Part shown: positions 22,751-23,293 of the stretch, piece by piece
How positions within the stretch are numbered: position 1 is the first letter of the stretch
Layout: each line of letters begins with the position of its first letter
IMG/VR virus record: IMGVR_UViG_2619619233_000003
Coordinates: 18,086 to 82,085 of that record
DNA: 64,000 nucleotides
Direction: 5' to 3' (one strand)
From: a virus
Lineage: Duplodnaviria > Caudoviricetes
The notes under the pieces: generated by a model
Database searches by the model: none
What the model was told of the DNA's origin: nothing
Seen by the model: the letters and a program-made list of their open reading frames with translations, nothing else
Made by a program: the position numbers and the translations under genes

Positions 22751-23108
22751 TCTTATTATCTTTGATTTCATTACAAAAAATCGGGATTTTTCGAACTTGC
22801 AAGGCAGTTGCATGTTCAATTTAACTTTTGGACCGTCATCCGTGCTTGGTTGCGAGATATCCGCGCGAGGCCGCCGATTTCTTAAAGGCCGGTTTTCTGG
22901 GCTTTAAAGGGTCTTAAAAGACCGATAGGGTGGTTTTTGAAGAGTTGTTGAGGGAAGCCCGAATTTTCCCCGTTTCTGCCGCGACGGATCGCAGATGGCG
23001 CCGCCAGTCTGTCAAATTCGGTTTTTATCGCTTCTCGCCTGCACGCTTGGAAGCCCCTGATTTACAAGGCTTTCCCGCCAGTTCCCGGATATTATCGGAT
23101 ATTCCCAG

Positions 23109-23136
23109 AAATTGCAGTAAGTGGTGACAAAGTACA
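23109..23136 (-). other. Left end (attL) of prophage A
   Basis: Reads TGTACTTTGTCACCACTTACTGCAA inward; TG...CA terminus at expected distance from repressor. Confidence 0.7.
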
Positions 23137-23221
23137 AGCGCGTTTTCGGAATTTTGACACGAGAAATCGGAATTTCTGAAAATTCCAGATTGGCGTGTCA
23201 AAGCCAGAAAAGGGATTTCTC
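23137..23221. repeat. Inverted repeat region, candidate right end (attR) of prophage B
   Basis: TTTGACACG ... CGTGTCAAA inverted pair enclosing GGAATTT/AAATTCC; no terminal TG. Confidence 0.5.
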
Positions 23222-23293
23222 TAACCATCCTCTTTACCCACCAGCACTGTCGTCGGTATGGTCCGGTCCAAGACAATGGCTAGGGGGTGTTTC

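Follow-up and report, generated by a model that had tools for sequence, protein, structure and literature searches.

Transposition of phage Mu is the textbook example of near-random insertion protected by target immunity. Mu is described as inserting near-randomly, its own genome being spared along with about 1.5-5 kb next to its ends (cis-immunity and genome immunity), and as showing a certain preference for the leader and trailer DNA of pre-tRNAs (PMC7350765); for the Pseudomonas transposable phage Ab30, the genome ends are given as the least-hit domains (PMC5977238). According to excerpts on two other kinds of elements, the Tn7-like CASTs of types I-D and I-B2 insert in one orientation a few tens of nucleotides downstream of a tRNA gene, CyCAST landing 30-33 nt after tRNA-Leu via TnsD, with MuB being a homologue of TnsC (PMC10293859), and IS30 is drawn to its own inverted repeats as targets (PMC9333248). 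For Mu-like phages, neither tRNA-side targeting nor end-in-end tandems were found to be reported in the literature outside supplementary files and subscription journals. Here, a viral record is described in which the left end of one Mu-like prophage (A) is joined to the interior of the right end of a second one (B). With a probability of about 0.7, we read this junction as the product of a transposition of A into nucleotides 11-15 of the right end of resident B, at a tRNA-side site that was used again, occupied sites not being avoided.

The record, IMGVR_UViG_2619619233_000003, comprises 82,085 bases and is classed as a provirus by IMG/VR; the window, i.e., the whole stretch of 64,000 nucleotides that was analysed, corresponds to its bases 18086-82085. 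Its first codon is an ATG and its end is the stop codon of an 88-aa ORF, which, together with the provirus class, indicates that it was cut from a longer host contig at gene borders. A and B are two distinct, collinear Mu-like copies lying head to tail in the same orientation, with their genes on the minus strand, as illustrated by a self-comparison in which blastn returned ten collinear segments of 70-89% identity between positions 2488-40795 and 43227-82085 of the record. Prophage A runs up to position 23136 of the window, its repressor (left) end being at the high coordinate, and prophage B begins at 23137 and extends past the end of the record, its left end being placed by homology with A about 426 nt beyond the last base. 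The right end of A was sought in the record through the right-end core, which occurs there only once, at 23148, and belongs to B; the first 600 nt of the record contain two small plus-strand ORFs and no phage end. The main genes of both copies, in window coordinates, are the following.

21581-22354, plus strand: repressor of A, with HTH and S24 peptidase parts (Pfam)
16417-18432, minus strand: MuA-type transposase of A (Pfam DDE_2, HTH_Tnp_Mu_2 and Mu-transpos_C)
15305-16417, minus strand: MuB-type AAA+ target protein of A (Pfam Phage-MuB_C and AAA_22)
57565-59583, minus strand: MuA-type transposase of B (Pfam)
56455-57486, minus strand: MuB-type protein of B (Pfam)
62676-63644, plus strand: repressor of B (BLASTP against the repressor of A)
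23258-23740, plus strand: right-most gene of B, a YbjQ_1-domain protein (Pfam PF01906, E 5.9e-26)
23754-24161, minus strand: ORF of B, 135 aa, without family match (Pfam)
24224-25132, minus strand: C-5 cytosine DNA methylase of B (Pfam PF00145, E 7.2e-30)
25107-25301, minus strand: Com-like zinc-ribbon protein of B, upstream of the methylase (Pfam PF10122, E 1.6e-13)

The transposase domains PF02914, PF09039 and PF09299 were matched in both A and B, and PF09077 together with an AAA domain was matched in the MuB-type partner that adjoins the transposase in each of them. In addition, A encodes Ner-like, ParB-like, DUF3164, GemA and Mor genes. Between A and B, identity is 86% for the repressors, whose differences cluster in the HTH part, and 91% for the transposases; such values would be compatible with A and B being hetero-immune siblings. 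The right-end modules differ, Com being followed in A by a P-loop/GNAT fusion protein and a formyltransferase-like protein (L072:640-2648) and in B by the C-5 methylase. Over 550 relatives of the P-loop/GNAT fusion occur in IMG/VR, most of them at the ends of records, and the module may be a Mom-like DNA-modification module. The com gene and the stretch upstream of it (25142-25459 of the window, 2488-2804 of the record) form the best-conserved part of the right arm, with 88.8% identity between A and B and 89.7% over 160 nt to Rhizobium phage RR1-B; the genes flanking this stretch differ, and it may represent a regulatory region of the com operon. Besides, the YbjQ_1 protein of B (23258-23740) carries a cysteine-rich N-terminal stretch and is encoded on the strand opposite to that of the neighbouring phage genes, in a moron-like manner.

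Four features describe the junction itself.

23009-23136, minus strand: left end (attL) of A, aligning from its terminus with four sibling left ends
23136-23137, no strand: junction between the exact left terminus of A and nucleotide 11 of the right end of B, with no host DNA between
23137-23141, no strand: AGCGC, nucleotides 11-15 of the right end of B, predicted to be one copy of a 5-bp target duplication by comparison with the 5-bp duplications of siblings
23137-23211, minus strand: truncated right end (attR) of B, lacking its terminal 10 nt, as delimited by sibling right ends and run contigs

The letters ...GTGACAAAGTACA end at 23136 and are followed from 23137 by AGCGCGTTTTCGGAATTTTGACACG, with an inverted CGTGTCAAAGCCAGAAAA at 23194-23211, exactly as read in the first-pass annotation, whose gaps of 13 nt (23741-23753) and 62 nt (24162-24223) near the methylase were also recovered. 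It had further proposed that the left end of A directly abuts the right end of B, and indeed no host DNA intervenes. Read on the minus strand, A terminates with TGTACTTTGTCAC at 23124-23136 and holds an inner TTTGACAG-type site at about 23009-23021, that is, a TG terminus with subterminal transposase-site repeats. From its first base, this end aligns with the virion-derived left end of the Sinorhizobium phage StopSmel and with three prophage left ends; hence, 23136 is a genuine and intact Mu-type left terminus. The left-terminus motif occurs a single time in the whole 82-kb record, and a Mu-type left terminus located 10 nt from a right-end core was found once in the window and never in 100 shuffles.

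On the other side of the junction, B displays the conserved core CGGAATTTTGACAC at 23147-23160 and an inverted GTGTCAAA at 23195-23202, as do StopSmel and Aussie. This two-part right-end pattern was scanned in IMG/VR, in one genome per GTDB species and in JGI metagenomes. The first two of these scans, together with the phage records, yielded 18 loci, of which L010 is a chance match; among the other 17 sibling right ends, 16 have the terminal TGT exactly at position -20 relative to the core, and L011 has it at -19. The metagenomes gave another 18 loci, six of them by chance, and TGT stands at -20 in all 12 real ones. In the window, positions -20 to -11 before the core read ACAAAGTACA, which is the terminus of A, and positions -10 to -1 read AGCGCGTTTT, which agrees with the B-type ends of L020, L011 and L040 over their second half. 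Contigs from public sequencing runs provide the missing part. Record 1 of run X1 covers 23137-24218 and record 16 of run X20 covers 23137-23487, both with 0 differences to B and both with TGTACCCTGT directly before 23137; records 17 and 18 of X20 continue B with 0 differences, so that records 16-18 cover 23137-24600 in pieces. The flanks beyond TGTACCCTGT differ between X1 record 1 and X20 record 16. From these contigs, intact and solitary copies of B exist. The intact end of B is TGTACCCTGT followed by AGCGCG..., and exactly 10 nt of it are missing in the record. The loss of the terminal TG of B announced in the first-pass annotation thus stands, these positions being occupied by the terminus of A. 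The extent of this loss, put there at 3-4 nt, has to be corrected to 10 nt on the basis of both the sibling geometry and the X1 and X20 contigs, and the end TGT(A)AGCGCG that it gave for B3/BcepMu-type phages is not the one carried by intact B. In agreement with its statement that B has no alternative terminus, TGTACCCTGT was found neither in the window nor in the whole record when at most one mismatch was allowed. A search of IMG/VR with the pattern of the 15-nt displaced fragment returned 17 loci, 16 of them by chance; the seventeenth, L040, is an intact B-type end located 17 nt after a tRNA-Met gene.

The same sequencing runs bear on whether the junction is an assembly chimera of two related phages from a mixed sample. 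None of the contigs of four public runs spans 23136|23137 with 31 nt on each side, and hence the junction rests on this one assembly, an uncovered stretch speaking neither for nor against it. Runs X1 and X2 contain B and nothing A-like at 90% identity or more, i.e., B occurs in runs that are devoid of A, and Mu-like phages are repeats that break assemblies. Record 15 of X20 matches 23081-23146 apart from 5 differences before diverging; it may correspond to the left end of B itself beside host DNA. Nevertheless, a chimera appears very improbable to us, since no sequence common to both sides exists at the joint that could have misled an assembler, the joint coincides to the base with a transposon terminus, the provirus record stems from a longer contig, and similar joints occur in two other provirus records, with complementary scars in named NCBI genomes.

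With an exact terminus on the side of A and a shortened one on the side of B, the junction is most economically read as an insertion of A into B. In this scenario, B would have been resident first, and the related Mu-like phage A would then have integrated in the same orientation through MuA/MuB transposition. A staggered cut of the target at nucleotides 11-15 of B would have joined the intact left terminus of A to nucleotide 11, and the terminal 10 nt of B together with the 5-bp duplicate (15 nt in total) would be expected beyond the right end of A, just outside the record. Members of the family would be directed, in one orientation and with their right end towards the tRNA, to positions 8-125 nt past tRNA genes, and a resident copy would confer no protection on its site, so that a newcomer would land either within the short spacer or among the first bases of the resident right end. 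We infer the order of events, the 5-bp duplication at this place, the presence of a tRNA gene beside this array and the way in which the target was chosen. The AGCGC pentamer does not fit the Mu target consensus NYSRN/CYSRG as given in excerpts of two articles (PMC7350765, PMC12486242). As for a target selector, a six-frame search of the 82-kb record for TniQ (PF06527) gave 0 matches and a Pfam analysis of 37 ORFs of the record returned none; by analogy, one may guess that a selector linked to MuB would aim the insertion. Deprived of the terminal TG/CA that a Mu-type transposase needs, B should be unable to transpose or replicate alone, and A presumably still can.

Then, relatives were surveyed for the same kind of junction, as the first-pass annotation had advised, and three further fusions were found, at +3, +4 and +18. 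The provirus record G002 has a sibling right end that is 4 nt short, an exact left terminus being joined to it at +4. A 65-kb record (G004, IMGVR_UViG_2708742418_000007) holds three Mu-like prophages in one array, whose joints at 7748 and 48906 (loci L153 and L154) have left termini fused inside the next right end at +18 and +3, respectively. Tandems with a spacer were also observed. In G003, an 8.8-kb Mu-like element, flanked on both sides by ACGGC, a 5-bp target duplication, separates a tRNA-Ser gene, located 44 nt upstream of it, from a resident phage whose terminus lies 21 nt beyond it. In Rhizobium sp. CFBP 8762, the newcomer is a 43-kb phage located between tRNA-Met and an unrelated second Mu-like phage; it is flanked on both sides by CTTGT, again a 5-bp duplication, which directly abuts the resident terminus. 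A CA+CTTGT sequence at 41.6 kb in this strain was considered as the left end of phage Y and was discarded because it does not resemble a left end. The newcomer has the orientation of the resident in every one of these joints and tandems (G002, G004, G003 and CFBP 8762). Among 401 sampled genomes of the family to which CFBP 8762 belongs, a close left-end/right-end junction was found in one, that of this strain, with 0 control matches.

These relatives also allow us to evaluate the possibility that A first inserted beside an intact B with a short spacer, and that a later deletion removed the spacer and the first 10 nt of B. Tandems with spacers of 5 and 26 nt are indeed known in relatives, and the near-palindrome formed by abutting termini (ACAAAGTACA facing TGTACCCTGT), in which the left terminus of A and the right terminus of B agree at 8 of 10 positions as inverted repeats, could favour such a deletion; moreover, the far flank that distinguishes a deletion from an insertion lies outside the record. 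However, the deletion would need to stop exactly at the terminal base of A, three more fusions keep an exact left terminus at the differing depths of +3, +4 and +18, and short terminal fragments of 6-18 nt are present on the tRNA side elsewhere, as predicted by insertion and not by deletion. A secondary deletion is therefore considered improbable, and the insertion of A into B is retained.

The position of solitary copies was then considered. With some tens of tRNA genes in a genome of 4-7 Mb, the positions lying just downstream of them would represent well under 1% of the DNA. Right ends carrying the CGGAATTTTGACA core were counted at 29 distinct sites, i.e., 33 rows minus two virion records, one duplicate locus and the second row of L017. 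At sixteen of these 29 sites, a tRNA gene (15 tRNA-Met and one tRNA-Ser) is found 17-125 nt upstream, in all 16 cases on the same strand and with its 3' end pointing to the right terminus. Five other sites lie behind or inside the left end of another element, and the remaining eight have no whole tRNA gene nearby, one of them having a 3' remnant of a tRNA and another having only 120 nt of contig upstream. Similarly, six of seven newly found loci with stacked right ends are located 8-118 nt after tRNA-Met, tRNA-Leu(TAG) or tRNA-Trp, and the insertions at these loci are independent, as their spacers to the tRNA all differ. Altogether, nearly all fusions, tandems and scars of the relatives are found 8-125 nt past a tRNA gene, towards which the right end is turned. 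A T-arm motif was examined as a shared recognised feature at two places in G001, an occupied tRNA-Met and an empty tRNA-Lys, and was set aside as too thin.

Insertions away from tRNA genes were observed as well. In Agrobacterium vitis S00303, the same phage end occurs twice in one genome, after tRNA-Met and elsewhere (L013 and L021), and another phage end occurs at two sites inside genes of the metagenome contigs JAANMV and JAANMT (L061 and L070). Hence, the phage family also makes non-tRNA insertions, perhaps during lytic replication. At L065 and L155 (G005), the right end follows a 3' remnant of a tRNA with no whole tRNA gene, suggesting that integrase-type rearrangements took place earlier at the same tRNA sites.

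If a newcomer inserts at depth p inside a resident right end, p+5 terminal nucleotides would be left on the tRNA side. Right-terminal fragments that start with TGTAG... and are followed by a new terminus were indeed found, with lengths from 6 to 255 nt, as follows.

L018: scars of 47, 23, 82, 47 and 255 nt
L017: scar of 34 nt
L067: scar of 44 nt
G005: scar of 23 nt
L156: scar of 16 nt
L157: scars of 6, 10 and 17 nt
L160: scars of 18 and 32 nt
L161: scar of 15 nt
L162: scar of 32 nt
L163: scar of 33 nt

The 15-nt scar of L161 corresponds to a depth of +10, as predicted for the joint of the window. The most complex case is L018 (CFBP 8762, NZ_JACYUD010000003, reverse strand 6964-7418), where six right-end starts are packed within 475 nt after one tRNA-Met gene, the 47-nt cut point having been used twice. 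The stack pattern that led to L156-L163 is not specific alone, with about 15 matches in the reversed control versus 10 places in the true orientation; scars were thus counted only where reading revealed duplicated termini, and L159 is a chance match. It was dropped together with the other chance or unassigned matches (L010, L054, L057, L058, L059, L060, L064, L048 and L049). Identical duplicate scars would be generated if a newcomer entered a like resident and the tandem then collapsed by homologous recombination.

These scars could also be taken to mean that the resident right end itself attracts the newcomer, in the manner of IS30, the location beside a tRNA simply reflecting where the first copy landed. 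All the stack insertions fall within the previous right end, mostly in its first 47 nt, certain depths are used again (+18 in the 23-nt scars of L018 and G005 as well as in the G004 fusion, and +42 twice), and many scars duplicate the terminus of the resident exactly. In addition, the CFBP 8762 stack has three insertion points at 167-474 nt from the tRNA, farther than the 17-125 nt of solitary copies, so that not all of the data can be explained by tRNA distance alone. On the other hand, solitary copies with no older end nearby are already on the tRNA side at 16 of the 29 sites, the G003 newcomer sits 21 nt outside the resident end, nearer to the tRNA, and none of the non-tRNA sites L006, L007, L013, L061, L063 and L070, admittedly a small sample, carries a stack. 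An attraction by resident ends is thus rather unlikely as the primary cause. The first-pass annotation had proposed an integration targeted to prophage ends. One part of this proposal is supported, as end-in-end fusions and scars recur in relatives; the other is weakened by their location beside tRNA genes, where solitary relatives also insert. Because these fusions and scars adjoin the tRNAs used by solitary relatives, a hot spot without effective immunity explains most of the data with no need for end recognition, and the apparent end-targeting is probably a by-product of the reuse of a tRNA-side hot spot in the absence of Mu-type immunity. A composite 80-kb element and the immobilisation of a rival, both raised in that annotation, would be possible consequences.

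From this analysis, the machinery of A and B is ordinary for a Mu-like phage and their target behaviour is unusual. With odds slightly better than even, we propose that a Rhizobiaceae lineage of MuA/MuB phages follows a mode of targeting that has remained undescribed, whereby elements insert right end first, tens of bases past a tRNA gene (mostly tRNA-Met), overriding immunity, the resident being disabled and the arrays collapsing to scars. If so, Mu-type machinery can be aimed without a selector of the TniQ/TnsD type, and the lost terminus of the resident would explain how related transposable phages disable each other within a lysogen. Right-terminal scars stacked after a tRNA gene provide an annotation signature for such arrays and their remnants, and the system can be directly tested with cultured rhizobiophages.

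Compared with known systems, A and B share with Escherichia coli phage Mu the MuA domain set, MuB and the Ner-like, GemA, Mor and Com genes. A TG terminus with subterminal repeats is seen at the left end of A, and the right end of B has the inner repeats but lacks its terminal 10 nt; 5-bp target duplications as in Mu are seen in relatives. Near-random targeting with end immunity was not observed, as shown by the 16 tRNA-side sites out of 29, the four end-in-end fusions and the many scars; such targeting is the behaviour of Mu itself and not a criterion for the wider MuA/MuB group. Thus, unlike in Mu and Ab30, the ends are hit repeatedly in the family of A and B, and insertion is oriented and on the tRNA side. 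Among cultured phages, the left end of StopSmel aligns with that of A, the right ends of StopSmel and Aussie share the core of B and its 20-nt geometry, and Rhizobium phage RR1-B has a 160-nt stretch upstream of the methylase at 89.7% identity. The DNA similarity of these three phages to the window is limited to short stretches, and their sequences are virion genomes, hence without flanks; a published table lists StopSmel and Aussie with no integration site (PMC12429752). The relatives of A and B resemble the Tn7-like CASTs in their oriented insertion downstream of a conserved gene. In contrast to these elements, the record has no TniQ/TnsD, the distance to the tRNA varies from 8 to 125 nt in the family instead of being fixed, several tRNA species are used, and the transposase is MuA and not TnsAB. 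Finally, A and B recall IS30 in that they insert beside ends of their own kind and form head-to-tail arrays. However, IS30 moves by copy-out-paste-in through IR-IR junctions, whereas elements of the A/B type are 40-kb MuA/MuB phages making 5-bp staggered insertions, and in the family of A and B it is the outcomes, i.e., fusions and scars, that are observed.
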